DNA of 50,832 bases, counting the filler, from Jimgerdemannia flammicorona (lineage: Eukaryota): assembly GCA_003990765.1 (NCBI GenBank). It is 2 parts of 2 records of this genome, joined end to end, with 100 filler letters (N's around TTAATTAATTAA, not from the genome) between each part and the next. Parts side by side here need not be neighbours in the genome. Positions count along the whole stretch, not along the records: positions 1 to 25,373 come from RBNJ01000840.1; 1 more part is not named here. The stretch is one strand, 5' to 3'. The translations under genes and the position numbers were made by a program. Positions 3,001 to 25,473 of this stretch are shown here, piece after piece; the stretch's first letter is position 1, and each line of letters starts with the position of its first letter. The notes beneath the pieces were generated by a model, which searched no databases, was not told where the DNA came from, and saw only the letters and a program-made list of their open reading frames with translations.

Positions 3001-3673
3001 TGCATTGCCGTGGTGGAAGTACGTTTAATAGCCATTTTCCCAATTCTTCATGTTTTGGCGAGTTGAGAGGGCTTAGGGGCTAGGATATCGTATTTATAAT
3101 ATTAACTAGTGCGCGACGTTCTTGCCTACATATCTCAGCATGGTCCCCCGCCGACAGGCTGTAATTCACCTCCACCCGACAGCGTCGTCCGGTTGTACTC
3201 AGGCAAGTCCTCAGTCCTACTTTTCGTTACTTTATGAAAATTTTGGATATATTCCAATCATTTTTGGCAATCACCACATAGTCGGTCGCAAACGTCACGT
3301 CCAGGACGACTCGGATATCGACACCGAGGACGAAGAGGGGGAGCTCTCACAAGACGAAGGAGTTGGAGGGAATGATGATGACGACGACGGCGACGAAGAT
3401 GGCAATAGCGGTGGTATGGACACGGACGAAGAGAATATCTACACAGACAGCGAAAGCGAGACAGGGTCTGGGTCCACTTCTAGCATCGCCACCACTGAGC
3501 CCATATCCGGCTTCGATGACATATCGATCAACTCGGACGGCACGACAGCAACCGCGACGATTTCGGAGAACGGCGAATGGCTGGATTTAGAGGAGGAAGG
3601 GAGCGAGGGTGGTGATGTGCCCACTTCCGAACCCCGAACCCAGCTCCACGGTGTTTGCGTCCACAGAGATTGA
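89..3673 (+). CDS. DCAF1: DDB1- and CUL4-associated factor 1 (VprBP) homolog, multi-exon, 5' part outside window
   Basis: Spliced exons (approx. 89-300, 390-460, 554-1324, 1416-1519 and later) give IRKAALEVLCNL..VWQAVRSNNGIKVL, LGLACDPAIRNILG, LisH (ELLLVIHRHLQSKGLLQSASVLARE), TLDYVIAEFLRNQHSHCQNP..PHRCPE, WD40 repeats (WDIR, IHKFDK, WDLRSFKLLRDIPSLD, FRTFDADDY) and VGRKR followed by an acidic tail, which is the DCAF1 architecture. The exact 3' end is uncertain. Confidence 0.92.
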
Positions 3674-4093
3674 AGCGTCGGCCTTCACTTGCCCGAGCGA
3701 AGCGGACCACAGGATTAGACCTACCTCGGGGGGAGGAATGTTGAAGAAAGCAACGTGGCTATAATATAAACAATTTTGAGGAGGGCGGTATGGCGGAGGG
3801 AGATGGTGCAGCGGAGGAGAGGTAGTAGATAGTAAAATGGATAGGTGGCTGACTTGGACGATGTATAGTTAGAGGCTAAAGTGACTAGTTGGTATTCGAA
3901 TGATTGTAGAAGACAATCTACTGTTGACTTTTTACGTGCGAGCGGGATTGTAAACCTTTTTCGTTCTTTCTCCAAGAATCGTAGTACCGGTTTACTCAGA
4001 ATGGTATTGACACGTCATCACATAATGACGTCACACACACATTCCAGGATATTTTTTTTGCGGTTAATAAATAGGACAGACCTCTTCCGCAAC

Positions 4094-5095
4094 ATGTTTG
4101 GCGACGAACGCGAAGAGCTCCTCCGCGAGGTCGCCTCCCTGGGCAACCTTAAGGCCGTCCTCCACTACCTCCACGGTGGCGTCAACGTCAACTCCAGCAA
4201 CAAGGTCAATGGCTGGTAATTAAACCCTTCTCCCACCCGATCTTCAAAACCTACACTAACCCCCACCCCTTTCCCACACACTCAGGACGGCGCTCCACTG
4301 GTCCTCCCATCGCGGTCACGAAGAGGTGACGCGAGCACTGCTCGCCAACGGCGCTGACATATCTCTCGTCACCTCCAAGGGCCAGACGGCCGCTGACCTC
4401 GCCAAAACGGACGAAGTGCGTTCATTGTTTGGGGAGCCCACCGTGGCCGCTGAACCCGAGCTGTCGTTCGTGCCGAGGTATCTGCGCGAGCCGGATCTAG
4501 ATAAACTATGGTCCGTGCCGGACGAAAACGCGGGAAAGGGCGTCGATGCGCTATCTATCGCTAAGAGCGTCGAGTTTTTTCGCGCGACGGCTCCGCCTGT
4601 GGCGCCAGTGGCACCGTTTCCGGCGGCGGTAGCGGCAGGATCTGGGCCAGGTATGGATATGGCTTGTATTTGTCCATGATGATAATGACGATACTTTATT
4701 CACTAACTAACAATTCCTACTCTCCCACAACAGCGAAGGAACTTCTGGTTTACCTCTCAACCCGCACTGACGACGCCCTCCTGGGCTCTGTCTTTGCCGA
4801 GCCGGACGACACCATTGAGACGACGGTGCAGCGGGTCAAGGAGGTAGCCCATCGAAATCGCAACGGCAAGACGCACATGCCAGAGATCGCACATATCTTC
4901 CATACATCCTCCATAACTCACACAACATGAAATATCCTGTAGGAAATGGTTGACCTCCCTCCGACCTTCTCCATCGCCAAGCATACGGGCAAGATGTCCA
5001 TCCCCGTCACATTCAATCAGTACGCCAAGAAAACAATGCAGCACTTCCGCGGCGAGGTAGACGCCATCGTTGTGGTACCGCCCAAGTCAGCATAA
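4094..5095 (+). CDS. Ankyrin repeat protein, ANKRD40-like (4 exons)
   Basis: MFGDEREELLREVASLGNLKAV..GVNVNSSNKVNGW|TALHWSSHRGH..GADISLVTSKGQTAADL..FVPRYL resembles the ANKRD40 N-terminus. GT-AG introns at approx. 4216-4285, 4650-4732 and 4844-4942; stop TAA at 5093-5095. Confidence 0.85.
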
Positions 5096-5855
5096 GGATA
5101 CTGCAGTGGTGAATCAGTCATGGCGAAGCGAGACGGGTTCACCAACACCGCTGCTCGTTTCGCAAAGAGAGTTAATGAAGTGGTTTTTTTGTTTTTTGTT
5201 TTTTGTTTTTTTTTGGTAAGTGCTGAAGTTTTGAGGTTATTATTTTTGTTTTGTTTTGTCCCTGAAGTGGAGGGACAACGCGACATACTTAGGGATCGAC
5301 GCAATGATGAAGTCATAGAATTCTGCAATGCCAATCTCTCGGGCCCCCTCGGGAGACTCGAAGGGAGATGCCGATTATTCTTTCACATTACACTCCTGAT
5401 GCTCTATCCATGTTCTGTTTGTTGGCAAGATAACCCTTTTTTATGATGCCACATGATCGACTCTCTGACATACCTTCTCTATATTTACCAACCATCACGC
5501 ATGACGGCCTTGCTCGTCGCTGGTGAAGACGCCACTCAATGTTGCGCAGTGGTAATTGTATTTATATTTTGTAAATGTAAAATAAACGCATGATTAAATT
5601 GGGTGTACCCCTGGGTGTTACTACATAGTTCCATCAGAGTGTATTTTACGCACCCAGAAAGGTGAACAATCGCTAAAAACGGTGTCGGATCATAATGGGA
5701 AGTCGGCCTTGCGCAGTCAGTCATTACGTAAAAGTGCCAGTGTAACGCCTTTGTGGAAAGGGTTTTGCTGGGGCATAACGATCTGCATTGGAATGGCAAA
5801 CAAGCACATTATCTCTTCAAGTAGATTATGGTAAACACATCTCGACTGACAAAAC

Positions 5856-5886
<31 letters not shown>

Positions 5887-7118
5887 AACGGAATGCCATC
5901 CAATGGTGATGTCACCGTCGCCACAACTTGATGAGAAACACTGCGCTGGTACATTGGATCCTTTTTCTCGACTGGCAGATCGCGCGGCAGTGATTGCATG
6001 TGCAGTCCCAATGCTCGGCCTATCCGTGGCCCTTTTACACGGGATGGCTGGCAATGGTGGTCTTGAATCGGGATAGAGTCATCCGTAGGCAAATAGGGGT
6101 TTGTTGAAAAGGTTCCAGGAAACGATGAACGCACTCCGCTATAGTTCAAAGGAAAGCAACAAATTTGTAGCGCTGGTAAAAAAGAGTATATACGAGCGTT
6201 CATTTCGAAATCTCTGTTTGTTCTGACAGCCTCCAATCGGTCACAGTAGGATGTCCAGACAATAGACGTCGGACGCCGTCGTAGACGGTGAAAACATGTA
6301 AGTCGGTCATAGGTACCCTAACCACAAATTTATGCGTTTCATTCTATCCATTGGTGCGCTTGCGGCTCTTGCAAGTACGCGGATTTGCATATAAGCACCG
6401 GCAGCAGCGCGTCCACAGGAGTCAGTTGGCACTGCGACCATCGGACTACAGGGCGTCCGCTTTACCGGTGGATCTTGGGCAAGGATAATCTCGCATGAAA
6501 ATCGACGTCTATGTCCGTTTGTACGGCCAAGGCGACATCCCGAGCTATTGGAGTATTGGCAACAACACCACTTTGGACGGATACTATTCAAAGCTCCGGT
6601 TCGTAGGACCCCAAGGGCTTCCGATAAGGAATACGGAGAACATCGTGTGTGCATGACCAACTTTGAGAGTGGCGTCATGGTGTCAGAGGTGGACTCAGGT
6701 TCGGTCGTTACTTGAGAAGCGCGTGAGGTTTCTTAGTCGCTTTGCGTGGCCAGAATGGCAAAGAGATTACAGTCACTTTATTGGTTTGTAATAGTTTTAT
6801 TTAGAATAAAATAATACATCTTTTGAGCCCCGTAGAGAGCAGTCTGAAAGAAGCGAAAGCATCCATAGTTTGGTAGGGCTATTGTGCCGGTCTCTGTGGG
6901 GTTATTTGCAGAACTGATCGAGTCGTTATGTCACATCACACGTGCGGAAATCTGTATGACTTTTTGTAATTTGATGACATCACCGACCCAGAACCTTAGA
7001 TTTTTATCGTCATTCCAAGATGGACAACTTCCAGGGATGCTCAGGTATCCAGGTACATGTTATTGGCCCACCCAGTTTTTTTCTTTTTTTGTTTTTGTTA
7101 CGAACATTTCGTGACTTC

Positions 7119-7184
7119 GTTTTCACGTTTTCGCATTTTTCGCGTTTTCGCGTTTTCGCTTTTTCGCGTTTTCGTGTTTTCGCT
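7119..7184. repeat. (TTTTCGCG)n-like 8-bp microsatellite at the left edge of the first TE block
   Basis: About 8 degenerate units, ttttcacg/ttttcgca/ttttcgcg/ttttcgtg. Confidence 0.85.
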
Positions 7185-7635
7185 TTTTTTTTTTTTTTTA
7201 TTCTTTTGAAAAAGAAATTTTAAGATCTGGTCTGTCAACAGTTATGAACCCCTACTACAAAGAGCACCAGTCTATCTATTGTGATAAGTGAATAATATAG
7301 TACATATAGTCAGATGATGTGAGCACTCAGTATAGTATAGTAGGTTAGTTTACTCTTAACTTTATATTTGAGAAGATCTTCCAAACTCAGTCTATTGGTA
7401 TATCTTACATACTAATGAAGAGTCCTTTTACCTTTATGACTGCAGATCATCAAGAAGACCACACTGCCATCTGTAGAGAGATATAGATTCTTAAAACTCA
7501 TTATTTTTTTTTTAAATTTTATTTTACAGACTTGAAGCTCTGCAGATTTTTATTGAAAGAAAACCTAGACTATATAGGCCAAAACCCTCTCCCACCACCC
7601 CCTGAGCACTACACCCTCATTAATCTAGACTAGCT

Positions 7636-7792
7636 TAGTACTCTCAATAAATTGAATTAAATTGAATTTGATCTAAATTCAATTTGATTTGATTTGAACT
7701 TAATTCAAATTGAAAAAACCCCAATTTAATTCAATTCAAATAACTCTCAATTTGATTTAATTCAAATTGATTTAATTCATTTGGAAGCACTA
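7636..7792. mobile_element. hAT-family MITE (157 bp)
   Basis: Termini tagtactctcaat... and ...atttggaagcacta; 8-bp TSD gactagct (7628-7635) / ggctagct (7793-7800). Absent from the uninterrupted family B copy near 43745. TIR resembles that of the large hAT. Confidence 0.85.
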
Positions 7793-8660
7793 GGCTAGCT
7801 ATTGTCCAGCAGCTTGACTATATCAGGTATAGCAGGACTTATGAATACCTATATCTCATTCTATATACTATACTTTTCCTATTATCAGAAAGTAAATAAT
7901 TATATATCTATAACTAAAGACATATACTTGAAATCTCAATATATGTACAAGGCTATACCTAAGCTGATTTATATATGTAGCTCCTGCTACTCTAAGTAGA
8001 GCAACAGATAAAGAAAAACTCTCATCAAAGTATAGAAAGGTAAGTAGAACCTAGTTCTCTTAGAGAAGTGAGTAGAGAACTTATACATAAGATGAAAAGA
8101 GACCTCTAATATCTCATTACTCAAGCCTACAGATCTTGATCATATTACTATATCAGCTCTTAGTTTTAGTTAAATTTAGCTAAGATATCTGATCTGAGTA
8201 GCCTCAGGTCTCCCAATTACCCCCAATAACCAGGGCCCAATCCTATATATTGCTAAAAGTAACTAAGAGTAATATTTATTACTTAACTACTATACTAATT
8301 AGAAGATCTCATCAATACAGTATCCATCTTAGCCCTGATGACTACTTCTAGTCTAATACTCTACTAGTTTATCATAATCACTCTTTCTCTTATCTGTGAT
8401 GGCTATCTCCTCTTCTATCCTGATTCCACCTAAAAAACAGTTATATATCTATATCAGTACTATACTCACTAGAAAGCTTGCCAAAGCTCAGAGAACTTTA
8501 CTATAAATACTAAAGATCTGTAGGTAACCTATACTAACACTTGATGTCCAAGGTCAGCTGATACTCTATACAGCTCATAATATACTCAGATGATATCTTA
8601 TTGATGATAATAAAAAGAAGAAAGTATTATACCAAAATGAGTATATTCTAGATATAGTCA

Positions 8661-11600
8661 TCTCTTTCTAATATACCTTATGTAACACAAACATATATTA
8701 CCTACTCTTATACTATTCTTTAGAGAAACATCTTAAGAATATGTCCTTGAATTTGAGTTCTATAGAGTATACTGAGCAGGATAGCCCTAGTGCATTTAGC
8801 TGGCAGTATGTAGAGAGAGATCAGAGAGCAGAGTTAGAGATATTAAGTACTTTATTAGAAGGAAGGGGGGTTGACAGTAGTGGAGAAAGAGGTACAGTAT
8901 AGCCTGGGGGGAATCAGATGAGCTTTACTGAGAAGGACAAGCAGAAGAATCTAATAGCTAGACTAGATAGGTGACTGCAGGGTGGTAAGAGAAAGGCTAC
9001 TACTGGGGAGCCAGGAGGGGCTCTCTTGGAGGTACCTAGTGAGAGGGCTAGGAGTATAGTGGCTGGGGGTGTAACTGCTGATGGGGCAGTAACTGATAAT
9101 CTGGAAAAAAAAAAATACAGATATAACTGCTGATAGCAGAGTTAAAAAAATGGGGCCCAGATAGATGAGAGATCTAGTAGATAGTATAATGGGCCTGGCA
9201 GTAGCCTTATTACTCAAAAAGTCAATCTTGGAGTTGGTAGTTACTTTATACTTCTGGGGCTTAACAGTGATGGTGAAAATAGTCTTGGAACTAATTGTTA
9301 AGCAGATGGATAGTGTGGTGTCTATAAAATTCTTGAGAAGTTTAGAAGGAGTAGAGGTGGACTTTGAGGAGGCTGGGCTATTGGAGGATATACTGAAGGC
9401 TAGGCTGACTATTGGGGAGATGTGTGTCCCAATGATATGATATTTGAGGTAAAACCCCAGGGTGGTACAACTTCTAATAAAAGGAGTACCCATAGTGACT
9501 GCAGTGAAGATAAGGAGGAGAGTAGAGGAGATTATAGCCAAGTATGGGGAGGTGATTGATATTGGGTTTCATGTCTGAAAAGGAACTTTATTCAGGATAA
9601 GAGATGTAGATGTCCAGATTCAGTTAGCTAAGAGAGAGGCTACTGGGAAGACTTATAACTGGCCATCAGTAATGGTGTGAGGGGTCTTCATATATAAGGT
9701 AATAAGAGTGAAGGGGAGTAAAGAGGAGAAGGAGAGATACTGAAGAAGCTGAGTGATATAGTAGAACAGAAGGCAAAGGCTTGGAAGATATATGTAGAGT
9801 CAATGTATTTAGAGGTAGTAGATGGGAAGTATATCTGTGTTAATAAAGGGCTATAGAAGAGATCCCAAGGATGCAAGAGATAGAGAGAGTTGCTGGTAAA
9901 TCTGAAGGAGAAGGCGAAGAGAGATACTGGTAGCATTGAGGATCCTGGGGGAGCCAAAGTGAGTGTCTGGGCCAGCAAAGATAGAGGGAATATGGAGGAG
10001 GGTCAGGAAGAGGCTGGGAAAGATACCAAGCAAAGACCTATATATGGATAGCATGTTTGAAGTCTAGGAGGACACTCCTTCTCTTATCAGAAGGAGACCA
10101 GTCTTGAGGGACTAGACAGCAGAGAATGTATCTATACAAGGTGTCCAGTAAGTATACTTTGGAGTTTCTGAGATAGTAAAAGGGGGACAGGTAATAGTAG
10201 CTAGTGAGGATAAACTGGTAAATATTTCTGAGAAGGAGTGGGATAAGACTGTAAGTATGGGGGCTAATATCTTGATGCTGGAAGTGAGAAGACTAGTGAC
10301 TAGATAGAAAGGAGGTGGAAAACCTACAGTAGATATGTCAGATGATAAATAACTTAGTAGCTGAGGAGTTGGGTGATGGACCTAAGGGTGCTTAGTGATG
10401 ATCAATAGGTACAAATATTATAAAGAGATGAAGTAGTGAAGGCTCTGAAGGTGGAGGTGCTTGCAGTTTTTTTGGAAGAGAAAGGATATGAGATCAATAA
10501 GATAAGAAAGATAGAGCTGGTAGTTGTTTCTGGGGAGCAGACCAATCTCTGATGGGTAGAGAGATATAGATTGCAGCTCTGATAAAAAGCCTGCTTGGAG
10601 TACTATGAGAACTTTGAGGAAAAGGAGAATAGAGAGCTAGCTGAACTACTGGTGGGATTAGAGACTAAGAGAGTTGAAGAGGAGAAAGTGGCTATTGAAT
10701 ATGATTTGGACTTAGCATAGGAGAAGATAATATAGAGCTATAGAGAATATGTTTGACTTTTAATATTACTTTCTATGAATAGTACAACTAATATTTTTTC
10801 TTTAATTGTGAATAGGTTATGGAGATTGGTTTAATGTCAAAATATTTTTACTTGGCTAAAGAGATTAGAGGCTGATCTCTTTCTTTTGTAAGATGTTAGA
10901 TATGAAGATGACTTAGATTGACTAGATTGGATGAAAAAATAGAGAGGTGAGATAGTTTGGAAGGATGAGGTTGGGATTTTGGTCTGGAGAGACAAAGGAG
11001 AGATACAAGATGTGAGGAGCTAGAGTGATTGGCTGGTTTAAGAAGAGTGGAGTTGACCAATTGGGAGTTGATTATAGTAGATTCCTGCTATTGTTTTACT
11101 ATACAGGGTAAGTATGTGGAGTAGGTGAAGAGACTTCAGAAAAGTGGGACCCTCATAGAGACTAGAGTGGACATTCTTGAAGGGAACTTTAATATGATCA
11201 GAGATATACTAGTAGATAGGACTAATAGAGGGTGGGGGGCTGGAGATCAGAGTGGGGGTCTGGAGATATAAGAGAAAGTAGAAAGACTGAGTTCTTTGGT
11301 AGATACTAGTAGGGGGTTCTGGGGAGATAAGAGGGTTTATATGCACTGGATGAATAGTCTGAGGATAAGGATTGACTGAGTACTAACAGCAGACTGCTGG
11401 GGTTTGAATGTTTGAAGATTGCTGGAGGCTGAGTGGTATTCATAGTCTGATCATTAGAGACTATTGAGACAGGGTCATTTAGGAGAGAGTGAGGATGGGT
11501 CTAGACATTGGTACCTCAACTCCTCTCTGCTAGCAGAGAGGGAGCTGTGAGACAGATGGGCTATGAATATTTAGTGGAAGATTAACAGTTGGATTGGTAA

Positions 11601-14486
11601 GGGCCTTCCTATAGATATTTATTAAAGGCAATTGAAGGAGAATATCAGAGTTTACTAAGGGGAGACTGGTCAGATAGTGGAAAGAAGAAAGAGAAGGAGA
11701 GTGTATTGGGCCTCTAGCAGGCTTACTCAGCTACAGAGAGCTTAGGCTAAATTGCTGAGCTTGGAAGGAGTTGAGGATTAGAGGTTGATGTATGCTAAAC
11801 TGGAGATAGTAGAGCTGCAGACTATCTTGAGGGAGGAGGAGAAGATATGTGTAAAGGAGATTATTGCTTGGTTGTGATAGTAGGGGTTGAAAGTGAGAGA
11901 GAGACTCTCTAGATATCTTTTGCAGCTGCTTTGGGCCAGACAGATGAAGTAGAGATGAGATGGTATAGTTGATTCAGTGAGTATGGTTATTCATAGTACC
12001 CAGCAGATTCTTTGCTCTCTTAAGGAATGATGGAGTGATTTATAGAGTGAGAAGATTGGAGGGTACCAGTGCTAAGAACATTGAGCTTGCTCTAGAGAAC
12101 TAGAACCTACCTCTAGTATATAGTATTGAATGGCTGTCCTGGCTAGTTTAGGAGGAGGAGATATAGTAGATTATTTCTACTATAAAATTAGACATAACCC
12201 TAGGTGAGGACAGACTCTTTTGGGATTTCTGGAAGCAAATGGTAGGAGTTTCTGGAATTCTTAGAGAAATGATAGCACTGTGTAATTATGTTCTCTTGAT
12301 AGAGAGGTGGGTTGGTAAACAGGATTTTAGATTGGTGATCTTACTCTATAAGAATAAGAGTGATAGAGAGAATTAGAGAAACTGCCAATCATACTTTTAG
12401 ATATGGATAGGAAGTTAGTTACCAAGATAATAGTGGTATGCCTCAGTATATAGCCCAATAGATATTGAGAGAAGAGCAGTGTGGCTTTGTTGGGGGATGC
12501 CTCATTTGAGATAGTACTATATGGGTATATAGTATCATAGAAGAGGTAAGGACAAGTGATCTGGATAGAAGACTAGTTTTTTTGGATCAAGAAAAGGTCT
12601 ATGATTAGGTGAGATATATCTGGCTGAATAAAGTACTTAACAGAATTAGAGTTCTGGATCTCTATAGTTAGCTTACTGGAAGGTAGTAAGGCAGCTATCT
12701 TGTATAATAGTTATAGGGGTAGGATATTCACCCTAGGAAGAGGGATTTCTTAAGGAGATCTATTGTCATCCATTCTCTATGCTCTCTTGTTGAAATCTCT
12801 AATGGATAGGATTAGGTAGAGGGTGGTAGAGTTGTCAGTATTTGGAGTTATTTGGAAGATGGGTATCTTTGTAGATAACATGGTAGTGGGACTTGAGTCT
12901 GTGGCTGATATAGTAGTATTGAGGGAGATAGTGGAGTAGTATGAGATATATTCTAATATAAGGCAGAAGTAGTATAAGTGCAAAATAATAATGCTTAAGA
13001 ATGAGATAGTGAGAGAGAACATCATTGGAACAATTATTCTGGCTAGCAAGGCTGTGTAGTATCTTGGGGTTTATTTGTTGGTATATGGGTCTATTATAAC
13101 TAAGGTCTGATGAGAGAGCAGGGTCTCAAGTTAGGGTGAGGCACTTTGGAGCTAGGGAGAGCACTATATCTCTCTAACTAGCAAAGTGGCAATTCTGAAT
13201 ATTTATTGGCTACTAAAGATATAGTATTTGGCCTACTATCTGGATTTCTCTTCTTAGGTGGTGAGGTAGCTATTGAAGTTGGCTAAGGATTGGATCTGGG
13301 TGGGACACAGAAGTCAAATTGGCTGGAGCATTCTTTTACTGCTAGTAAACTATGGCAGTCTTAGTCTAGTAGATTTCCCAAGGAAGCTCTATTGCTTGAG
13401 GGCTTGGTGGCTGAGAAGGGCAGTAGAACTGCAAGGAAGTGGCTGGGTCTCTTTGATGCAGAAGGTGTAAGAGTTGAGGGTTTTCTCATGGGGTTCTATA
13501 GAGGATCTTCTGTCTCTTATGGGTCTGCAGGACAGTGGGAGATTGTACTTCAAAGGATTTTGATAGAAGATTGCAGTAGGAGTACATTACATTAGGCTGC
13601 AGTGATAGGGTGATAAGGGAGAGATATATTGGGGGCTGGTAATGTGATACTGGGATAGGCTCCTATTTGGGAACTCTCTCTTTATGTAATTTGATATTAG
13701 GAATAAGGTAAAGTATCAGAGAGAGATGGGGCTGGACATGTGGCCAGTAGGTTGATAGGATATTGGTATAGGTGAGGAGTGAGACTGAGATGGAGTTTGA
13801 TTCTAGAGTACTGAGGTCAAGTAGTAACTTCCCCCAAGTTCTGGATGATATAGTGATATATATATACTAAGGAGAAATGTCATGCTGAACTTCCACTTTG
13901 GACATTTGATTGAGGGTAGAGAGTTTGAGTGTGAGGAGTATCTTAATGTAGAGTAGAAAGAGAGTTTTGTACAGTTGTCTAAATATTGGTTGAGAGAGTA
14001 TAAGGTACTTGGTGATTTCTAGATTACTGTAGAGAAGTACCTGGGGGTCTATAGAAGGAGAGATGAGGTGAGAGACCATTGGGAGGATCTGAAGGAGTAT
14101 CTTGTAGGAGAAGTAAGAAATGAGTAGATTACATATAACTAGATCTTAGCAATTTGGGTAGAGCTGGCTAGGCATTGGCTCTTTATATTTGAGGAAGAAT
14201 AGTAGTTGAGTATTATAAAGAAGCTGTTAAAGTGAGATATGCTAATAGAGGATCTCTTAACTAGCTGATGGATGGGCTAGGGACCTCAGAGGGACTGTTA
14301 CCACCAGCTTATTGAGGGAATCTGTATGCAGAGTAGAGGTCAAATGGAGGTGATTGAGGGCCAAGTAGTCTTTAAATGAGTAGAAGTTAGTGGAGTCTCT
14401 CCTAGAGGGATTGGATAGTAGGCTGGATCAGATATTATAATTAATATAATATAGAATATAGTAATAAAGTAAGTAATCTAAGTAAC

Positions 14487-14521
<35 letters not shown>
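8661..14521 (+). mobile_element. Full-length degenerate L1/Tx1-like LINE (family A, copy 1)
   Basis: ORF1 from ATG 8741 (..IKGVPIV..IAKYGEVIDIGF..). ORF2 from ~10775 has an APE endonuclease (IFSLxVNxL, GNFN, RID, SDH) and RT (xPGEDxL, LLYKNK, FLDQEKxYD, GDxLSxILY, FVDN from FADD, YLG). Poly(A) at 14491-14521; degenerate ~19-bp TSD at 8642-8660 / 14526-14544. Many TAA/TAG/TGA stops arise from transitions. Confidence 0.92.
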
Positions 14522-14525
<4 letters not shown>

Positions 14526-15039
14526 TATATCTCAGATATAGCCAGAAATACTAAAAACTGTAAAAAAGTATAGAAAGTATCAATCTGATACTGATAAAGA
14601 GACAACTCATCACTATTGCCTCTCTCTCACTATACTCTTATAGGTATAGCAAATCAACCTGAGATAGAGAAGATAGAATAAGGGGAAAGGGACTTGGAAG
14701 ATTGTCTATCAATCTTGTAACTAGTATGGTAGTGGATAAAGAACTATTAAAGCCCATTACTCTATCAATTGTAGAATTACTAAATAGAAAATTGGATTAA
14801 TTAGCTCTTTACTTGAGAGTCCATACTGAGTTCCACATAGTTATAGTGGGGATACTTGGAACTCTGCATAATGTCCCTGAGACTATGCTGCATAGTATCA
14901 CTAAGTCTCTTGGTTCCTATTTTGCATCACTTAGTAATATACTTATACCATATGGTACCAGACTCTTGAGTATCCCATAATGAATCATAGGTTATACTTA
15001 TGGTATAAAAAGAGTAGAGTTGGATGATTGGTAATATCT

Positions 15040-18000
15040 TCTTTCTGATATATCTCATATTATATAAATACATATTACCTACTTTTATACCATTCTTTAG
15101 AGAATTGTCTTAAGACTATGTCCTTAATTCAGAGTTTTACAGAGTGTACTAGGCAGAATAGCCTTAGTGTATTCAGCTGACAGTATGTGGAGGGGGGTCA
15201 GGGAGCAGGATTGGGAATGCTGAGCACTTTGTTGAGAGAAAGAAGAGTTGGCAGTGGTAGAGGAGGAGATATGGTGTGGTCAGGGAGGAATCAGATGAGC
15301 TTTGCTGAGAAGGTCAAGTAGAGAAATCTGGCAGCTAGACTGGATAGGTGGCTGTAGGGTGGCAAGGAGAAGGCTACTACTAGAGGGCTGAGAGGGGCTC
15401 TCTTGGAGGTACCTAGTGGAAGAGCTAGTAGTATAGTGGCTGGAGGTATAACTGCTGATGGGGTGGTGACTGGTGATCTGGAAAAAAATCCAGATATAAC
15501 TACTAATAGTAGAGTTAGAAAGATGGGGCTGGGAAGGATGAGAGACCTGGCAGATAGTGTAATGGGTCTGGTGGTGGCCCTATTACTCAAGAAGTCAATC
15601 TTGGAGTTTGTAGTTACTTGTGCTTCTGGGGCTTAGCAGTAATGGCAAAAATAGTCTTGGAGCTAATTGTTAAGCAGATAGATGGTATAGTATCTGTGAA
15701 GTTCCTGCAGGGTTTGGAAGGGATAGAGGGGAGGCTGGACCATTGAAGGAAGTACTGAAGACTGGGCTAACTATTGGAGAGGTATGTGTCCCAATGATAC
15801 AATACTTGAGGTGGGACCCCAGAGTAGTATAACTTCTGATGAAAGAAGTACCTATAGTGACTACTATAGAGATGAGAAGAAGAGTTGAGAAGGTCATAGC
15901 CAAGTATGAGGAGGTGGTTGATATTGGGTTTCAGGTCTGAGAAGGTATCTCTTTTAGAACAGAGGATATTGATGTCCAGATTTGATTGGCTGAGAGGGAG
16001 GCTACCAGGAAGACTCATGATTAGCTATTGGTAATAGTGTAGAGGGCCTTCATATATAAGGTAATAAGGGTAAAGAGGAGTGAGAAGGAGGAGGAGAATT
16101 TATTAGAGATACTGAAGGAGTTGAGTAGTATAGTAGAGCAGAGAGTGAAGACTTGGAAGATGTTTGTAGAATCAACATATCTAGAAGAAGTGGATGGGAA
16201 GTGAGTCTATATGAATAAGAGACTATGGAAGAGGTCCTAAGGATATAAGAAGCAGAGAGAGCTACTGGTGAAACTGGAGAGGAAGGTGAAGAGAGATGCT
16301 GGTGGTATTGAGGATACTGAGGGAGCCAAAGTGAGTATTTGGGCCAGTAAAGATGGGGGGAATATAGAGAAGAATCCAGAAGAGACTGGGAAGATACCTA
16401 GTAAAGACCTATATGTAGATGGTATATTTGAAGTCTGGGAGAATACTCCTCCTCTTATTAGAAGGAGTCCAGTCTCAAGAGTCTAGATAGCAGAGAATGT
16501 GTTTATATGAGGTGCCCAGCAAGTACACTTTGAAGTTCCTGAGATGGTAAAATAGAGATAAGTAGTGGTGGCTAGTAAGGATGAGCTGGTAGATGTCTCT
16601 GAGGAGGAGTGAGATGAGACTGTAAGTATAGGGGCCAATACCTCAATGCTGGAAGAGGGGAGACCAGTGACTCCAGATAGAAAGAAGGTGAAAAACCTAC
16701 AGTAGATATATCAGATAATAAATAACTTAATAGCTGAGGAGTTGGGAGACATAAATCTAAGAGTACTAAGTGATGATCAATAGATATGAATATTACATAG
16801 AGATGGAGTAGTAGAGGCCCTGAAGGTGGAGGTACTTATAGTTTTTTTGAAAAAGGAAGAATATAAGATTAATAAGGTGAGGGAGGTGGAGCTGGCAGTT
16901 GTTACTGGGGAGCAGGCTGCTCTCTGGTAGACAGAGAGATATATATTGCAGCTCTAGTAGAAAGCCTACTTAGAGTATTATGAGGACTTTGAGGAAAAGG
17001 AGAATGGAGAGCTAGCTAAACTTCTGGTGGGATTGAAGGCTAAGAGGGTGGAAGAGGAGAAGGTGGCTATTGAATGTAATTCAGACTTAGCATAGGAGGA
17101 GATGAATGTGGAGCTATAGAGAATATACTTGACTTTTAACATTACTTCCTATAAACAATACAACCAATATTTTTTCTTTAAATATGAATGGGCTATAGGG
17201 ATCAGTTCAACATCAGAATATTTTTACTTGGCTGAAGAGATTAGAGACTGATCTTTTTCTTTTGCTATGAAGATGACTTGGATAGACTAGATTGAATAAA
17301 GGAATGGAGAGGTATAGCAGTTTAGAGGAATAAGGTTGGGATTTTGGCCTAGAGAGGTAAAGAGAAGATATGAGATATAAGAAGCTGGGGTGACTGACTA
17401 GTTTGGGGTAAGTGGAGTCAACCAGATTGGGAGCTAGTGACAGTGAATTTCTACTACTATCTTGCTATATAGAGTGAGTAAGTAGAGTGAGTAAAGAGAC
17501 TCTGGAAGAGTGGAGCCCTTATAGAGGCTAGAGTGGACATTTTTGAAGAGGACTTTAATATAATCAAGGATATGCTAGTAGATAGGACTAACAGAGAGTG
17601 GGAGACTAGAGGTTAGAGCAGAAGTCTGGAGATATGAGAGGAAGTAGAAAAGCTGAGTTCTCTAGTAGATACTAGTAGGGGGCTCTGGAGAGATAAGAGG
17701 GTTTACATACACTGAGTGAATAATCTGGAGATATAGATTGACTGGGTACTGATGATAGACTGCTGAAGTTTGGATGTTTGGAAGTTGCTGGAGGCTGAGT
17801 GGTGTTTATGATCTGATTATTGAGAACTATTGAGACAGGGTCATTTCAGGAAAAGCAAGAATAGGCCTAGATATTGGTACCTTAACTTCTCTCTACTAGT
17901 GAAGGGAGAGCTGTGAGACAGATGAGCTATAGATATTCAGTAGAAGATTGGCAGTTGGATTAGTGAGAGCCTTCCTATAGATACTTGTTGGGGACAATTG

Positions 18001-20886
18001 AAGGAGAATGCTAGAGTTTACTAAGGGGAGGCTGGTTAGGTAGAGAGAAGATGAAGGAGGGAGAGGGTACATTGGGCCTCTAGCAGACTTGCTCAGCTGT
18101 AAGATACTTGGGCTAAATTATTGAGCTCAGAAGAGATTGAGAGTTGGAGGTTGATGCATGCCAAACTGGAGATAGTAGAGCTATAAACTGTCTTGCAGGA
18201 AGAAGAGAAGCTGTGTATGAGGGGGATGGCTATTTGGTTGAGATAGCAGGGATTGGAAGAGAAAGAGAGGCTCTCTTAGTATCTTTCTCAGCTACTTCAA
18301 GCCAGATGAGCAAAGCAGAGGTGGGATGGTATAGTTGATTCAGTGGATATAGTTGTTCATAGTATCTAGCAGATCCTTAACTCTCTTAAGAAATATTAGA
18401 GTAATTTATGAAGTGAGAAGGTTGGGGGTACCAGTGCTGAGAATATTGAGCTTACTCTAGATAACTAGAGTCCTCTCTCAGTGAATAGTATTGAGCAGCT
18501 ATCCTGGCCAGTTCAGGAGAAGGAGATTTAGCAGGTCATTTCTACTATAAAGTTAGATATGGCTCTAGGTAAGAATGGGCTCTCTTGGGATTTCTGAAAG
18601 TGAATGGTAGAAGTCTCTGGAGTTCTTAAAGAAATAGTGGTACTGTGTGATCATATTCTCTTAATAGAGAGGTGGGTTGGTAAGCAGGATTTTGACTTGG
18701 TGACCTTACTCTATAAGAATAAGAGTGATAGAGAGGATTGGAGGAACTGAAGGTTGATAATGCTCCTGGATATAGATAGGAAGTTGGTTATTAAGATGAT
18801 AGTAGTATATCTACAGCAGATGGCCCAACAGATACTAGGTGAGAAATAGTATAACTTTATTGAGAGATATTTTATTTGAGATAGTACTGTATGAGTGTAT
18901 GATATCATTAAAGGGGTACAGACAAGTAGTCTGAATGAGAGGCTAGTTTTTTTAGATCAAGAAAAGATCTATAATTAAGTGAGGTATGTCTGACTGGGTA
19001 AGGTGTTTGACAGGATTGGGGTCCCATAACAATTCTGGATCTCAATAGTTAGCTTACTAGAAGAGAGTAAGAAAGCTATCTTATATAATAGTCATAGGGG
19101 TGTGATATTTTCCCTAGGAAGAGGGGTCACTCAAGAAGATTCATTATCACCCATCCTCTATACTCTCTTGTTGGAATACCTAATAGATAAGATAAGACAG
19201 AGGGTGGTAAGATTGTCTATATTCAGAGTTGTTTGAAAGATGGGTGTCTTTGCTGATAACATGGTGGTGGGACTAGACTTGGTGGCTGATATGGTAGTAT
19301 TGAGAGAGATAGTAGAGTGATATGAGACATATTTGGGTATAAGGCTAAATTGGTATAAGTATGAGACAATAGTACTTGAGAATAGGGTGGTAGAAGAGAA
19401 TATTATTGGAATAATTGTCCTGGCTGATGAGACTGTGTAGTATCTTGGAGTTTATCTATTAGTATATAGATCTGTTCTAACCAGAGCCTAGTAGGAGAGT
19501 AGGGTCTCAAGTTAGGGTGAGGCACTTTGGAGCTAAGAAGGGCACCACATCTTCCTGGCTAGCAGAGTAGCAATTCTGAATATCTATTAGCTATCAAATA
19601 TTTGGTACTTGGTCTACCATCTAGATTTCCCTTCTTGTGTAGTAAGATGGCTATTGAAGATAGTGAAGGATTTAATCTGAGTAGAGCATCAAAGTCAAAT
19701 TGGCTAGAGTACTTTTTTACTACTAGTAAACTATAACAGTCTTAGTCTAGTAGATTTCCTAAGAAAGCTTCATTGTTTGAGGACCTGGTGGCTGAGAAGA
19801 GTGGTAGAACTATAAGGGAATAGCCAAATTTCTTTAATGCAGAAGATGTGAGAGATGAGAATTTCTCCAAGGAGTTCTATGAGAGATCTTCTATCACTGG
19901 TAAGTCTACAGAATAGTGAGAGACTGTACTTTAAAGAATTCTAATAAGAGATTGCTGTGGAAGTATATCACATTGGGCTACAGTGGTAGAGTGATAAGGA
20001 GGAGGTACATTGGGGGCTGGCAATGTGATACTAAGATAGACTCTTGCTTGGGGGCTTCTCTCTTGTTGAATTTGATATTAGAGATAGGGTTAAGTATCAG
20101 AGGGAGATGGGGTTGGACATATGACTGATGGGTTGACAGAGTATTAGTATTAGTGAGAAGTAGAACTGAGATAGAGTCTGGTCCTGGAGTACAGAGGTCA
20201 AGCAGTAGCTTTCCCTAAGTTCTGAATAGTATAGTAGTATATGCTAAGGAGGAATATTATACTGAACTTCTGCTCTAGATATTTGATTGAGAGTAAAGAA
20301 TTTGAGCATGAGGAGTGCCTTAATGTAGAGCAAGAAAGGGGTTTTATATAGTTGTCTAAATATTGGTTAGAGGAGTGTGAGGTACTTGATAGTTTCTAAA
20401 TTATAGTAGGAGAGTACCTGGGGGTCCATAGAAGGGGGGATACAGTGAGGGGCCATTGGGAGGATTTGAAGGAACATCTCATAGGGAGAGTAAAAAATGA
20501 GTAGATTATGTATAGCTGGGTCTTGGTAATTTGGGTGGGGCTGGTTGGACATTGGCACTTTGTATTTGAGGGCAGACAGTGATTGAGCTTTGCAGAGAGA
20601 TTGTTAAGGTGGGATAGGCTGATGGAGGATCTCTTGATTGGCTGGTGGGTGGGTTGGGGGCCTCAGGGTGGCTGTCACTGCTGGCTTATTGAGAGGATCT
20701 GCATGCAGAGCAGGAGTCAAATGGAGGTGATTGAGGGCTGAGTGGTCTTCAAACAAGTAGGAGTGGATGGGTTCCTCTCAGAGGGATTGGGTAGTGGGTT
20801 AGGTCAGATATTGTAATTATATAACATAGAATGTAGTAATAAAGCATGGAGTCCAAGTGACTATAAAAAAAAAAAAAAAAAAAAAA
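15040..20886 (+). mobile_element. Full-length degenerate L1/Tx1-like LINE (family A, copy 2)
   Basis: Collinear with 8661-14521 over ~5.8 kb. RT core FADN at ~19250, QEDSLSPILY at ~19130; poly(A) at 20865-20886. Confidence 0.92.
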
Positions 20887-21863
20887 GGGGGTAGGACGAT
20901 TGGGGTTACAAGATTGACGTCATCACTCTCTGCATTTCTCTCTCTGCAGCCTCAAAAATCTGCTCGGGCACTTCCACCAGTCCTTCCACCTCTCTGATGA
21001 CCCTCCGAATTGCATGATAAATGTGATACTACATAAGTCGATTGTTTTATTCATTTGAAGGTAACATGGAGAGAGTGGTGGAGTGCGATTAGAGGCACCA
21101 GGTTGCAGGCTCCTGTTCCAGGTTTTGAAGCAAAGCAGGAACTAGTTCCATATATTGTACATCTTGTCGTGTCGGAGGGTCTGTCTGGTCGGGGACAACG
21201 GAGAACTACGGTATTACCGTTTCATATATTACTAATAAAAAAATAATGGGTGTAATGTCTGCCGCCGATATCGAGTCTATCTTGGCTAAATATCGAAACG
21301 TGATCCCGAAGGTCATGTTAAATGACTTTATGGAATTGAGCAGAATGCACGGGATTTTTGGCATCTTGTTCATGGAGTATCATATATGGAACCAATGGAG
21401 AATAAGAAAGAAATGATGCAGGCGCTCATCAAACGGCACCCGTAGAAGCAGAAGTTGTAAATTGTAGTTGCATGCACTTTTGAATGAAAATATCCCGTTT
21501 GCCGTGACAATTTACTCGACTACGAACTCGTGGTAAGCTCCTTAACGTCTGCGACTGATATATCATCACTTCAAACATCCCGTGAACGGCATCCTGCCTT
21601 TCCGCCATCCCGAAGACGCGTGCGACAACACCGCCAGCACAACCTTGCAATGCCGTTGCCAACCATAACACGCTTTGCCCAAAACTAGAGTCCTTTGACA
21701 TTGTAGAATGATATTCAACACCAACTGGGGTAAAGCAGAAAAATGCGCCTGATCGCAACCATCCTACGAAAAAGAGAAAAAAAATCAACTCTTTCATTGC
21801 CAATCCTACGTAGCCACATATAGTTGCGGATAATATACATTTTCATTTCCACGCCCAGTACCT

Positions 21864-22093
21864 CCAGGTGCTTTTTCCAGCTCAGTCGCAAGTTTAAGTT
21901 TCAATACAACCGACTTCGTGAGGCATGACTTTCGGATTGGCCATTTCATTGACGCAGGTGAGCGTGATGGTGGAATTAGCACCTCCAGGAGATTTTTCCA
22001 GCTGAGCCGCAAGTTTAAGTTCCAATTCAACCGACATGGCTTTCGGGATTGGCCATTTGATTGTCGCGGGTGAGCGTGATGGTGGGATCTCAA
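21864..22093 (-). repeat. Two-copy ~115-bp tandem duplication inside a possible decayed minus-strand gene (~21430-22760)
   Basis: ccagg..tttttccagct..gcaagtttaagtt...gattggccattt...gtgagcgtgatggtgg occurs twice. The minus strand encodes IPPSRSPAxxKWPI...LKLAxxLEKxPGG twice, with frameshifts. Confidence 0.7.
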
Positions 22094-23180
22094 TGTCATG
22101 GGTACCCGACGCTGTTGGCGCCATATCGGAACGTCATATCTGTTCTGAACACTCTCCGTGGTCAAAGTTTCCCTCCCTTTTTTTCCTCGCCACCCTCGGG
22201 TGATTTGTTAGGGTTCCCGGTTAGGATAGGCCAAACTCTCTTCTACGCCCATCGTGATGAGATGTGTGACGGAGAATCGCATCTGCAGCATTAAGCTGGA
22301 TGTTTACCGTCGTCATCAAAATACATTAATATGAACTTTGAATTCCAGCACAAACAAGGCTACGAGCATTTCATAAAAGGAAGATTGGAATAAATAAACA
22401 CATGCTGTTGGGATGTTTGGTGAAGGTTGTGAAGCAGAGGTTGGTCTTGGGGACATCTGCTTCCGTTTTTCTTGGGGCAACTTTGGTTGTAAGTGGTCAG
22501 AGGGTTTCTGTCAGTTGTAAAGATTCCATTTCCAACAAGTTGATTTGTTTATGTTGTCTCCATATCAAATCAGGCGGATGATCGGTCAAAGATGCCTCAA
22601 ACTCCCATTCACTGATATCGACTACACCGTTAGAAAAACGCTCAGAGGTATGATAAAGAGTCAAAGACGAAGGCGTCTTAATTATCTTGTTCGGGAATGG
22701 AGAAAATAATTTCAACGTTCGGTACTCAATGTCGCTCAACCTGGAAATGGTTATGAACGGCGCGTTTTGATGTCGCCTCCAGTGAAAAACGGGCACAACC
22801 AGCCAGCGGACATAAGCACCATACACACCCAATGGCCATAGCATAAGGAACCCCGCAAAGCCACCGGCTGAGTTGGTGACGTGAAAGTGTGACCATTGAA
22901 GGAAAACCGACTTCCTGCTCAGCGCGTGTCCTTTGCTTACGTCCTCTCCTACTTCATTCTCGCGGCCCCACATTTCTGCATTCGGCACCGCCAAACAGGC
23001 AGCTGAACCGACCCACCATCCCACCATCCCACCGTCCCCGTCTCGTCTCTAACCCCGTGGGCGCGTCGGTGGCGAATCTCCAAATTCAAAAATCACAAAC
23101 CACCTGAGGTATCGCAGATCGCATATCCGCCCTTCGCTCCTCCCCGCTCTACACACCGCATAATCCGCATCCAATCTACA

Positions 23181-24059
23181 ATGTTCACGACTACCTATCC
23201 GCACGAGCCCCGCTACTCCGCCGCCCTCGCCGCCGCAGCTCCATCGGCGCCCCCCTCCACTGCCTCAAGGAAGCGCATATGGAGCCACAGCTTTGGTAAC
23301 GGCGGCAGTGGGATTACGGCGGTGCTGGAGGTCGAGAAAGCCGAGCCGGCACAGGTGCGTTGGTAGGGCGTGTCATCTTGTGTTCAGCGCGCTGTAAAAA
23401 CTTCCATCTCTTACTCCCTGGAATCTATCCCCAACAGAAACGCCACACCTCCGTGGACCGCGAATTCAACGTCCGACATCCCTCTCCACCTGCACAGAGT
23501 CCGCTCTCCGTCGCGTCCGTCATGCATGTCGTGCCTGTCACGCCGCCTGCGTCCTCGCCTATGCAAAGGGGAGATTCGGGCGTCGGAAGTATGATGCAGG
23601 GGAGGTTTGAGGACGAAACTGATGCCGCGTTGGAGAGGAGGATGTCGGATGTGTCCATGGATGATGTGACTATGGGCGATGCAGTTGAGGTGGGTTTTGG
23701 ATTCTCGAAGGTTGAGGGGGGGGGGGGGATGATTGGTCTTGGTGTGCATTTTGATTGGGAGGTGCATGGTAATGGATTGGACGTTGCCTTTATTGCAGCC
23801 GAATCATTCATTTTCTCATACTTCCATACATTCTCATTATTCTTTCCACTCTGACTAGCATCCACTTTTTCGGACCCCATCCTCGTACATCACCCGTCAA
23901 CCGGCCACCCCTCCCCGTTCACAGACCACCGTGCAAGCCGCTTCCCAGCAACAGCAATTACCGAGTACTAGCATCTCCATGGGTTGGCGCGCCGATTGCG
24001 AAAAGTGCCGTTTGAAGGTGCCGGGGCACTATGTGCACATCATTCGCGGGGAGAAATGA
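23181..24059 (+). CDS. Conserved fungal low-complexity protein with C-terminal MGWRADCEKCRxKVPGHYxH putative Zn-binding motif (3 exons)
   Basis: Exons 23181-23354, 23438-23689 and 23859-24059 join in frame with GT-AG introns; the protein ends SISMGWRADCEKCRLKVPGHYVHIIRGEK*. Confidence 0.82.
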
Positions 24060-24186
24060 GGTGGAGACGGTGTGTGTGTGTGGTGGTTTGGTTGATTTGG
24101 AGGTGGGGTTGCGCGCGAGATGATGAATAATGGAGTGGTGGCAATCTTTTGGTGATTCATTTGACATGTTGAGTCGATTTTATTTT

Positions 24187-24271
24187 TCTGTTGTCATGTT
24201 TCTGTGTTGTAAAACCGAAAAATTATTTTTCTCTGTTGTCATGTTTCTGCATGTTGTAAAACCGAAAAATT
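24187..24271. repeat. Two-copy ~44-bp tandem duplication downstream of the gene
   Basis: tctgttgtcatgtttctg(c)..tgttgtaaaaccgaaaaatt appears twice. Confidence 0.8.
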
Positions 24272-24476
24272 TGTAAATAGTTTTCTGCCATATTCTAGAC
24301 CCTTGCTACATCTTCTCTTTAACATAAAAAGACGTGCGTTGAAAAGCAATTTGATGATCACCATCACATGACCGTAATCCATAAATAGAAAATGCGAGAA
24401 ATCCACCAACTCACTCCATACCACAAAGCCCAGAACTCCCCTTCCCACTCCCTTCCCCTCCCCGTAAACCCCAAAA

Positions 24477-25299
24477 ATGCAATCATCGGGCCCGCCAGGT
24501 ACAGTCCCTTCCCCTCGCACCCCACCAGGATCTACCTCATTAAATTGATACGAACGGAACCAACTACGAATTCTTCACGAAAGGCTTCTACAACGCCCCT
24601 GTCTCCAAGTTCCTGCTCCTCTCCGTCGGCGGCTGCTCGCTTCTCGCCAACGTCCTAACCGTCAAGACGGCATTCCATTTGCAGCTTACCCCGCACTTGA
24701 CGACGCATCACCAGGTATGAGTGGATGGAGTAGGGGGAGACGGAATTGGTTGCCTGTCGCTGAAGCTTGACTGGAATGCCGAGACCGATTGGGTGCCCAA
24801 CTGTTGGCATCGTGGCTTGGGAACGCGGAACCACGGTTTCATATGACACACTTCTTCCTGCCTTCATTCCAAAGTTGTATTCTTACCATGACCCCACACG
24901 CCCTTCACGTACCGCGCACCTCCCTTCACGCCTTACCCCTTACCTCACCGTTAGTTCTGGCGCCTGCTCACACATCACTGCGCCTTTGCCAACTCGTCCG
25001 AGCTCTTCTTTGGCGGGATGGTGCTCTACCACCTGCGCGTCATCGAGCGGCATTTCGGTAGCTCTAAGTATGCGGTAAGAATATACGGATCGGCGGGTGG
25101 GGAGATGAAGGGGGAGGGGAACGTTTTCATGCACGACTCCATTTACGACTGGCGCCACGGTTACGCATCATCAAACGTACCGTACCCATGTATATACGCA
25201 GGCCTTCCTATTCGTCTCCTCCGTCATCTCAACCCTCCTCGAGGTCGGCGCCCTCGTCTCGGGCGGGCCGTTCGGGCTAAGATACATCCCAGCGGGGCC
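24477..25299 (+). CDS. DSC2: DSC2/UBAC2-like rhomboid-pseudoprotease membrane protein, 3' truncated by the assembly gap
   Basis: Spliced MQSSGPP|GFYNAPVSKFLL..HLQLTPHLTTHHQ|FWRLLTHHCAFANSSELFFGGMVLYHLRVIERHFGSSKYA|AFLFVS..YIPAGP. The GFxNAPVSK, QxWRL and RxxERxxGSxKY motifs are typical of Dsc2/UBAC2. Confidence 0.88.
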
Positions 25300-25305
25300 G
25301 TAAGT

Positions 25306-25341
25306 GTCTCGTCTCGTCTCGTCTCGTCTCGTCTCGTCTCG
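25306..25341. repeat. (GTCTC)n microsatellite in an intron next to the contig end
   Basis: About 7 perfect gtctc units. Confidence 0.9.
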
Positions 25342-25373
25342 CCTTTCCCTTCGCAATCGTTCACCTGTTCTAA

Positions 25374-25473
25374 NNNNNNNNNNNNNNNNNNNNNNNNNNN
25401 NNNNNNNNNNNNNNNNNTTAATTAATTAANNNNNNNNNNNNNNNNNNNNNNNNNNNNNNNNNNNNNNNNNNNN
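25374..25473. other. Artificial scaffold/contig linker (44 N + TTAATTAATTAA + 44 N)
   Basis: Exactly 100 bp and symmetric, with a six-frame stop core at 25418-25429. Confidence 0.95.

Follow-up and report, generated by a model that had tools for sequence, protein, structure and literature searches.

Repeat-confined C-to-T hypermutation resembling repeat-induced point mutation in a window of the Jimgerdemannia flammicorona genome

Can a fungus outside the Dikarya hypermutate its repeats, and what kind of process would do so? The question is raised by a 50,832-nucleotide stretch of DNA from Jimgerdemannia flammicorona, which we will call the window. Two blocks of repeats within it (7182-20896 and 25474-44897) have lost almost all of their CpG dinucleotides, while three genic stretches (1-7181, 20897-25358, and 44898-50832) have not. 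The hypermutation is real and is similar in outcome to repeat-induced point mutation (RIP); the host lineage and the context preference are both new. To explain it, we lean towards the deamination of cytosines after integration, by a process that is confined to repeats, has its own site preference, and is most probably linked to a methyltransferase of DIM-2-like or DNMT1 type.

An earlier note on this DNA had suspected a host outside the Dikarya and had proposed a PRE2/PRE7 phylogeny to confirm it. A comparison of PRE2 agrees with the suspicion. The PRE2 (proteasome beta-5) open reading frame (ORF) at 49699-50466 is 99% identical to a protein from J. flammicorona, and the next-best matches are from other Mucoromycota (53-67% identity), with Bifiguratus, Endogone sp., and Mucorales at around 60-62%. 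Also, spliced contigs with GT..AG joints are found in two public runs from a single organism, and one of them matches the window at 100% identity over the gene island at 20897-25358. We treated the contigs of both runs as RNA on account of the spliced joints, not of the recorded sample type, and parts of the repeat blocks without RNA contig cover were not taken as evidence of silence. By these comparisons, the host is J. flammicorona or something very closely related to it (Endogonales, Mucoromycota), which places it outside the Dikarya.

CpG loss and its borders

Block 1 (13,715 bp) contains a single CpG, at 9915, versus 444.6 expected from its base composition, and block 2 (19,424 bp) contains 16 CpGs versus 571.3 expected. 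The Poisson probability of these deficits is below 1e-190. The ratio of observed to expected CpGs (o/e) is 0.002-0.03 inside the blocks and 1.10, 0.98, and 0.97 in the three genic stretches. These counts bear out the claim of the earlier note that CpG is nearly absent from both blocks and common in the flanking genes.

The loss spans a long interspersed nuclear element (LINE), a long terminal repeat (LTR) element, a remnant of a hAT transposon, a short LINE-tailed element, and a 9-bp satellite. Each repeat piece has 0-6 CpGs versus 3-194 expected, and 15 of the 16 CpGs in block 2 are in the younger LTR element and its insertion. The base composition has shifted as well: the GC content is 48-50% in the genic parts versus 39% and 35% in the two blocks, and TpA/ApT is 0.59-0.74 in the genic parts versus 1.16 and 1.04 in the blocks. 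There is no surplus of TpG and CpA that matches the loss of CpG (TpG+CpA o/e of 0.93 and 1.08). The dinucleotides with cytosine or guanine that are over-represented in the blocks are CpT and ApG (o/e of 1.53 and 1.36).

The earlier note had also described the borders of the depleted DNA as sharp. This holds for the natural borders, which are sharp to about 10-20 bp at repeat ends. One of the four borders, at 25.5 kb, is not a natural border because 25374-25473 reads as a contig spacer. It probably joins two separate contigs, and the sequences on either side are not established as neighbours. At the left border of block 1, the last CpG is at 7181, a poly-T tract follows at 7185-7199, and the next 2.7 kb are free of CpG. 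At its right border, the poly-A tail of the second LINE copy ends at 20886, and CpGs resume 11 bp further on (at 20897, then at 20918 and 20965), with six in the 200 bp beyond the border. In block 2, the poly-A tail of the last short element stops at 44752, with the first CpG following at 44898. Short microsatellites at the edges (7101-7181 and 25305-25341) keep all of their CpGs, while the satellite arrays of 400-590 bp within block 2 have none. The second of these microsatellites, at the contig end, consists of eight GTCTC units.

Spectrum, context, and direction of the changes

The two LTRs of the LTR element, which began as identical copies at integration, differ at 146 of 1516 sites, with 145 transitions, one transversion, and no indels. 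This excess of transitions would be surprising even if 90% of neutral changes were assumed to be transitions (P = 4e-6). Over 5815 aligned sites, the two LINE copies (LINE A and LINE B) show 1120 transitions and 115 transversions. Both comparisons support the earlier reading that copies differ chiefly by changes of the C>T/G>A type, and that these are not limited to CpG.

The changes affect both strands alike. The copies of the LINE pair disagree at 39.6% of C sites and at 38.6% of G sites; for the LTR pair, the proportions are 23-28% and 21-22%. The two LINE copies are also mutated equally (407 AG versus 401 GA differences, and 147 CT versus 165 TC), as are the two LTRs. The symmetry between strands and between copies, along with the involvement of the hAT remnant and the satellite, indicates that the process acts on chromosomal double-stranded DNA after integration and rules out prior editing of complementary DNA (cDNA).

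A spectrum of dinucleotide contexts between copies, which the earlier note had proposed as a check, confirms that CpA and CpC are clearly mutated. For each context, with both strands pooled and with a shared 3' neighbour required, we computed the share of C sites at which the copies differ. In the LINE pair, this was 433/774 for CpA (0.56), 252/541 for CpC (0.47), and 134/947 for CpT (0.14); CpG was not scored. In the LTR pair, it was 72/222 for CpA (0.32), 29/94 for CpC (0.31), 12/221 for CpT (0.05), and 5/5 for CpG. The contrasts of CpA and CpC with CpT have Fisher P values between 7e-9 and 3e-77, so the order is CpG (saturated), then CpA and CpC at similar levels, and then CpT at a far lower level. 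Requiring all four flanking columns to match does not remove the effect of the +1 base, and the most mutable triplets include CCT and CAC. For each LTR copy, the implied share of mutated sites is about 0.20 for CpA, 0.19 for CpC, and 0.03 for CpT, versus 0.0003 per site for transversions. CpG is near saturation, with just five surviving across both LTRs. Adjacent CA/TG double differences, which mark a former CpG where one copy was mutated on one strand and the other copy on the opposite strand, occur 49 times in the LINE pair and 12 times in the LTR pair.

A comparison of two copies does not give the direction of change, so we used references internal to the data instead. The first is the satellite, whose units we aligned to their consensus. 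Three T positions read T 324 times, C 3 times, and G twice. C or G positions outside of CpG have changed to T or A in 61 of 325 units, versus 3 of 329 for T>C (odds ratio 25, P = 1e-16). At the position of the inferred CpG, 40 units have CA, 29 have TG, 17 have TA, and none have CG. This mix is expected if CG decays via CA and TG to TA, and the TA class (17 of 86 units) requires a step outside of CpG.

The second reference is a dUTPase domain within the LTR element. We compared it with 89 homologues (of length 130-260 amino acids) out of 150 listed, at those columns where conservation reaches 70% or more. Of its five departures from conserved residues, three can arise only via C>T/G>A (GGR>AGA, CGC>CAC, and CGA>TGA), none by the reverse changes, and two by neither.

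Younger or expressed copies give a similar picture. S_D, a younger copy of the short poly-A-tailed element, keeps six CpGs. At four of these, the older copies have CA, TG, or TA (for instance, CTCGCCGGGAAG in S_D versus CTCACTAGAAAG and CTTACTAAAAAG in the older copies); the other two are in poorly aligned columns. RNA contigs from related copies have G or C opposite A or T in the window more often than the reverse (72 versus 38 in X1 and 41 versus 25 in X2, with 12 and 7 transversions), and the loose end of one RNA contig has CpGs where the window has TG or TA. Finally, a contig from a soil metagenome (L001; 1345 bp) belongs to the same LTR-element family, with 79% identity over 1154 bp to 33539-34686. 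It runs on into the reverse transcriptase that the window's element has lost, and it carries stops. It has seven CpGs (o/e of 0.13), five of which align to TG or CA in the window. Its differences from the window have the same order of contexts as the pairs within the window (CpA 0.34, CpC 0.26, and CpT 0.18), with 77 transversions in the pair. The satellite consensus, the conserved residues of the dUTPase, the younger copies, and the expressed relatives agree that the changes ran in the direction C>T/G>A.

The repeats and their neighbours

The coordinates of the features are given in Table 1.

Table 1. Repeats, borders, and spacer in the window (positions along the whole stretch)
Feature	Position	Strand	Remarks
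CpG-bearing microsatellite	7101-7181		TTTTCGCG-like units; 14 CpGs kept; left block edge
CpG-free block 1	7182-20896		1 CpG vs 444.6 expected
S_A, 5' part (short poly-A-tailed element, split by LINE A)	7791-8660	+	71% identity to 43741-44600
LINE A (5'-truncated, 3' poly-A)	8663-14511	+	weak RVT_1 match
S_A, 3' part, plus sequence upstream of LINE B	14512-15039	+	14493-14669 matches 44549-44725
LINE B (poly-A ends at 20886)	15040-20886	+	RVT_1, E = 8e-14; 78.8% identity to LINE A
Spacer (probable)	25374-25473		reads N44 + TTAATTAATTAA + N44; six-frame-stop-like
CpG-poor block 2	25474-44897		16 CpGs vs 571.3 expected
9-bp satellite, left part	28327-28733	+	inferred consensus CCCGTCTTG; 0 CpG; split by LTR element
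5' LTR	28734-31464	+	interrupted at 29512-30727 by insertion
LTR element, internal region	31465-34857	+	primer-binding site, gag with CCHC knuckle, dUTPase, protease, chromodomain-like tail
3' LTR, intact (1502 bp)	34858-36359	+	about 90% identity to 5' LTR
9-bp satellite, right part	36362-36948	+	0 CpG
hAT transposase dimerisation-domain remnant	39321-39482	+	weak: 22.7 bits, cut-off 21.4
S_C, complete short poly-A-tailed element	43741-44752	+	0 CpG

In block 1, the reading frame of LINE A that starts at 8663 has 163 stops in 1949 codons. The sense strand of both LINE copies is poor in C (0.107-0.113) and rich in G (0.292). This skew predates the divergence of the copies, since the mutated fraction per site is equal on both strands. 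We considered using protein homologues of the LINE reverse transcriptase to polarise the changes, and we dropped them, as the relatives are just 22-27% identical. Protein relatives of the internal region of the LTR element were also set aside: they are fragments of 58-151 amino acids with 72-88% identity and are probably mutated copies themselves.

The LTR element (28734-36359) is Ty3/gypsy-like and is inserted in the 9-bp satellite, with a 5-bp target duplication (CCCAT/CTCAT) whose two sides are now one transition apart. Reverse transcriptase, RNase H, and integrase have been deleted; the polypurine tract is present. Both LTRs start with TA and end with CA. The TA start is as the earlier note described it, and the former TG that it read there is presumed. 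The insertion in the 5' LTR is 1.2 kb long, has a poly-A tail and a 13-bp target duplication, and contains S_D. A degraded region of about 6.8 kb (36949-43740) holds the hAT remnant and has one CpG versus 187 expected, so class II elements are affected as well. At the start of block 2, the 2.8 kb at 25474-28320 are unclassified, with 24% GC, no CpG, and 14-bp periodic repeats at 27478-27757; this may be a very old relic.

The earlier note had spoken of dUTPase and TET-like cargo and had proposed that the defence against repeats supplies the selective context for it. The dUTPase is there: it matches PF00692 (E = 1.3e-18) at 33600-33872, between gag and protease. No TET-like domain was found in the parts of the window that were scanned; six-frame coverage did not extend to 1-7181, 25474-28260, and 44898-50832. 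The proposed link to selection is weak, as the mutations act on integrated double-stranded DNA. A dUTPase would not protect against them because it acts on the dUTP pool during cDNA synthesis.

The gene island between block 1 and the contig end contains one or more expressed and spliced genes on the plus strand at 22619-25299, with introns at 23351-23433 and 23688-23856, for example. None of the 16 ORF pieces that we tested from 20897-25358 matched a Pfam family. Nearby, RNA contigs of very high depth (about 6333 and 597) match a 78-nt piece at 21073-21150, with three transitions. The sequences on both sides of the match are unlike. Scans of the window for Rfam families and tRNAs gave no matches, including for this piece.

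Candidate explanations and known systems

In the account that we lean towards, a targeted C-to-T process acts on integrated repeats, hits the two strands and the two members of a pair alike, and halts at repeat ends. The agent may be an enzyme of the DNMT1 superfamily that is directed to repeats or to heterochromatin and that would methylate cytosine, strongly where it lies in CpG and in part where it lies in CpA or CpC. It may recognize its targets via DNA homology, small RNA, or chromatin. Methylated cytosines that are bound by the enzyme would be deaminated at a rate far exceeding spontaneous decay. The outcome is coding frames full of stops and copies that have diverged to about 65-80% identity.

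Several published observations bear on this account. RID-1 is reported from Pezizomycotina only, while DIM-2-like homologues are reported from Endogonales and Glomeromycota (PMC9963178). Early-diverging fungi are described as poor in, or nearly lacking, 5-methylcytosine, and Phycomyces as having a DNMT1-class enzyme and a DIM-2 homologue (PMC13297926, PMC7862722). The transposons of Rhizophagus have bimodal CpG methylation (PMC8647823). In Gigaspora, 58.8% of CpGs are highly methylated (PMC13443276), which implies that these relatives keep their CpGs. One paper concludes that RIP-like signatures are unique to Ascomycota (PMC12543289), and another, citing Venice 2020, says that neither Gigaspora nor Mucoromycotina showed signatures of RIP (PMC8647823). 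We found no report of the pattern in the literature on Jimgerdemannia, Endogonales, or Mucoromycota combined with RIP, CpG, or methylation, in a search that Chang et al. 2019 (on Endogonaceae genomes) and Venice et al. 2020 fell outside of.

Some of our results count against this account or soften it. We used three RIP indices with these thresholds: a product index (TpA/ApT) of at least 0.89, a substrate index ((CpA+TpG)/(ApC+GpT)) of at most 1.03, and a composite index above 0. The product index is beyond its threshold in both blocks, as its values are the TpA/ApT ratios given above. In contrast, the blocks score 1.15 and 1.24 on the substrate index and 0.02 and -0.21 on the composite index, values that do not amount to the classic signature of RIP. 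This is likely because the decay of CpG keeps feeding TpG and CpA. Masking of the indices in this way would explain why surveys based on indices or k-mers could overlook the pattern. Second, we found no strand-coherent clusters of mutations and no processive single-strand tracts: of 12 runs tests, one gave P = 0.007 and the rest were not significant. Third, a three-way parsimony analysis of the short element gave no polarity, with 137 forward singletons (C>T plus G>A) and 142 reverse singletons (T>C plus A>G). Such a tie would be given by saturation near 50%, and equally by an unpolarised process. Fourth, strain differences in expressed genes, which are a rough guide to the species background, comprise seven transitions and one transversion and are too few to fix the neutral ratio. 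Fifth, the 146 bp after S_C are also free of CpG (P ~ 0.015), which may be a small leak or another relic, and the borders could owe some of their sharpness to selection on the flanking genes. Lastly, we infer the role of a DNA methyltransferase from the literature.

We are doubtful, without dismissing it, of a stricter version: that Endogonales carry out genuine RIP. Duplicates would be recognized by their homology before meiosis, during zygospore formation, and would be mutated in a burst down to a threshold of similarity. The enzyme would be DIM-2-like or DNMT1-type instead of RID, and it would have its own preference for CpG, then for CpA and CpC about equally, and then, far less, for CpT. 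Endogonales reproduce sexually through zygospores, which counts in favour of this idea. So do the equal mutation of both members of each pair, the end of mutation within about 11 bp of a repeat end, and the sparing of an 80-bp CpG microsatellite at the block edge while much longer satellite arrays were mutated. The older LINE pair (78.8% identity) carries only about double the mutation load of the young LTR pair, which looks like a plateau, and it still holds 341 conserved CpA and 289 conserved CpC sites; but a plateau is also expected from the loss of methylatable sites.

The published record cuts both ways. RID-dependent RIP in Neurospora alters repeats and not the linker between them (PMC12543289), and the arbuscular mycorrhizal relatives of Jimgerdemannia keep many methylated CpGs in their transposons (PMC13443276, PMC8647823), both of which fit genuine RIP. 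On the other hand, RID is reported solely in Pezizomycotina, and surveys report no signature of RIP in Mucoromycotina (PMC8647823, citing Venice 2020) or outside of Ascomycota (PMC12543289). Within the window, the preference for CpG over CpA, the equality of CpC and CpA, the substrate and composite indices, and the lack of strand-coherent tracts all speak against it. If genuine RIP does occur in Endogonales, then RIP-type defence either predates the split between Mucoromycota and Dikarya or evolved twice, and kingdom-wide screens missed it since the decay of CpG masks indices that are based on CpA.

It is improbable that the repeats decayed passively, that is, by long-standing CpG methylation and spontaneous deamination, with drift accounting for the other differences. 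Passive decay would account for CpG being the most affected and for its progressive loss (most of the CpGs left in block 2 are in the younger LTR element and its insertion). It also fits the methylation of transposon CpGs in the related Glomeromycotina and the apparent independence of the mutations from each other. However, it leaves the changes outside of CpG unexplained. Each LTR copy has changed at about 0.2 of its CpA and CpC sites, versus 0.0003 per site for transversions; C>T outside of CpG in the satellite is about 20 times as frequent as T>C; TA at former CpGs in the satellite needs a non-CpG step; and drift is not expected to depend so strongly on the +1 base (A or C versus T). Also, arbuscular mycorrhizal fungi with methylated transposons are still rich in CpG, and the blocks lack the gain in TpG and CpA that passive decay of CpG should leave.

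Editing before integration, by an APOBEC-like deaminase acting on single-stranded cDNA, is very improbable. Elements would then arrive already mutated and with exact borders, and the borders do coincide with element ends; the LTR element also carries a dUTPase, a gene associated with the control of uracil in cDNA. But the mutated fraction is equal on the two strands (0.396 versus 0.386), and the LTRs of one integration differ by 145 transitions, both C/T and G/A and in both directions. Neither the hAT remnant nor the satellite is reverse-transcribed, and both are equally free of CpG. Least credible of all is an error of assembly or sequencing, or the inheritance of families that were always free of CpG: the window combines at least two contigs, and among the matches listed no contig at least 99% alike covers the repeat blocks, but 12 CA/TG and 5 CG/TG-or-CA differences between the LTRs imply that CpGs were present at integration, the younger copy, the expressed relative, and the soil contig keep CpGs where the window reads TG or CA, and the pattern is consistent and context-dependent across five types of repeats.

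Thus, repeat-confined deamination after integration, probably with a DIM-2-like or DNMT1-type enzyme, is the account that we carry forward. The pattern resembles a genome defence directed at repeats, such as had been reported to be absent from this part of the fungal tree. It would open a new lineage in which to test how mutagenic genome defence arose and is distributed in fungi. It would make the DIM-2-like enzyme a candidate mutator outside of Ascomycota, and it indicates that index-based screens for RIP can overlook a CpG-first signature. The J. flammicorona genome is reported to have 240 Mb with over 77% repeats (PMC10386755), and how it grew to this point despite such a defence is a puzzle.

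Among known systems, one to compare is APOBEC3-type editing of cDNA. It shares the disabling of retroelements by C-to-U/T deamination, with borders at element ends. In contrast, the process in the window is symmetric between strands, follows integration, and affects a DNA transposon and a satellite as well, so it does not belong to this class. Methylation-driven decay of CpG, as in vertebrates, Basidiomycota, Rhizophagus, and Gigaspora, also targets repeats instead of genes, and CpG is also the most mutable site. But in the window the depletion is essentially total, C>T outside of CpG is hundreds of times as frequent as transversions, and the TpG and CpA products have been mutated on to TpA instead of accumulating, whereas arbuscular mycorrhizal fungi retain abundant methylated CpGs.

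Another parallel is the RIP-like hypermutation of transposons at TpCpG that Horns et al. reportedly described in 2012 in Pucciniomycotina and Microbotryum. It shares CpG-centred C>T changes in transposon copies, in a fungus without RID-type RIP. It differs in that the window's CpGs are gone whatever the 5' base, CpA and CpC are mutated too (0.31-0.56), and the host is outside of the Dikarya, so the window does not show the TpCpG pattern.

The process in the window can also be compared with canonical RIP. In Neurospora, the order of targets is CpA first, then CpT, CpG, and CpC. In the window, CpG comes first and is saturated, CpC equals CpA, and CpT is spared. The substrate and composite indices also differ from those of canonical RIP, as does the host, which belongs to Endogonales, whereas RID is reported in Pezizomycotina only. 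What the two have in common is C:G>T:A transitions that are restricted to repeats and that affect both copies and both strands. In both, stops accumulate in reading frames, AT content and TpA go up, and CpA is a good target. They may also share a DIM-2-like enzyme, which is reported for Endogonales; RIP in Neurospora crassa and other Pezizomycotina includes a DIM-2-dependent, heterochromatin-related branch.

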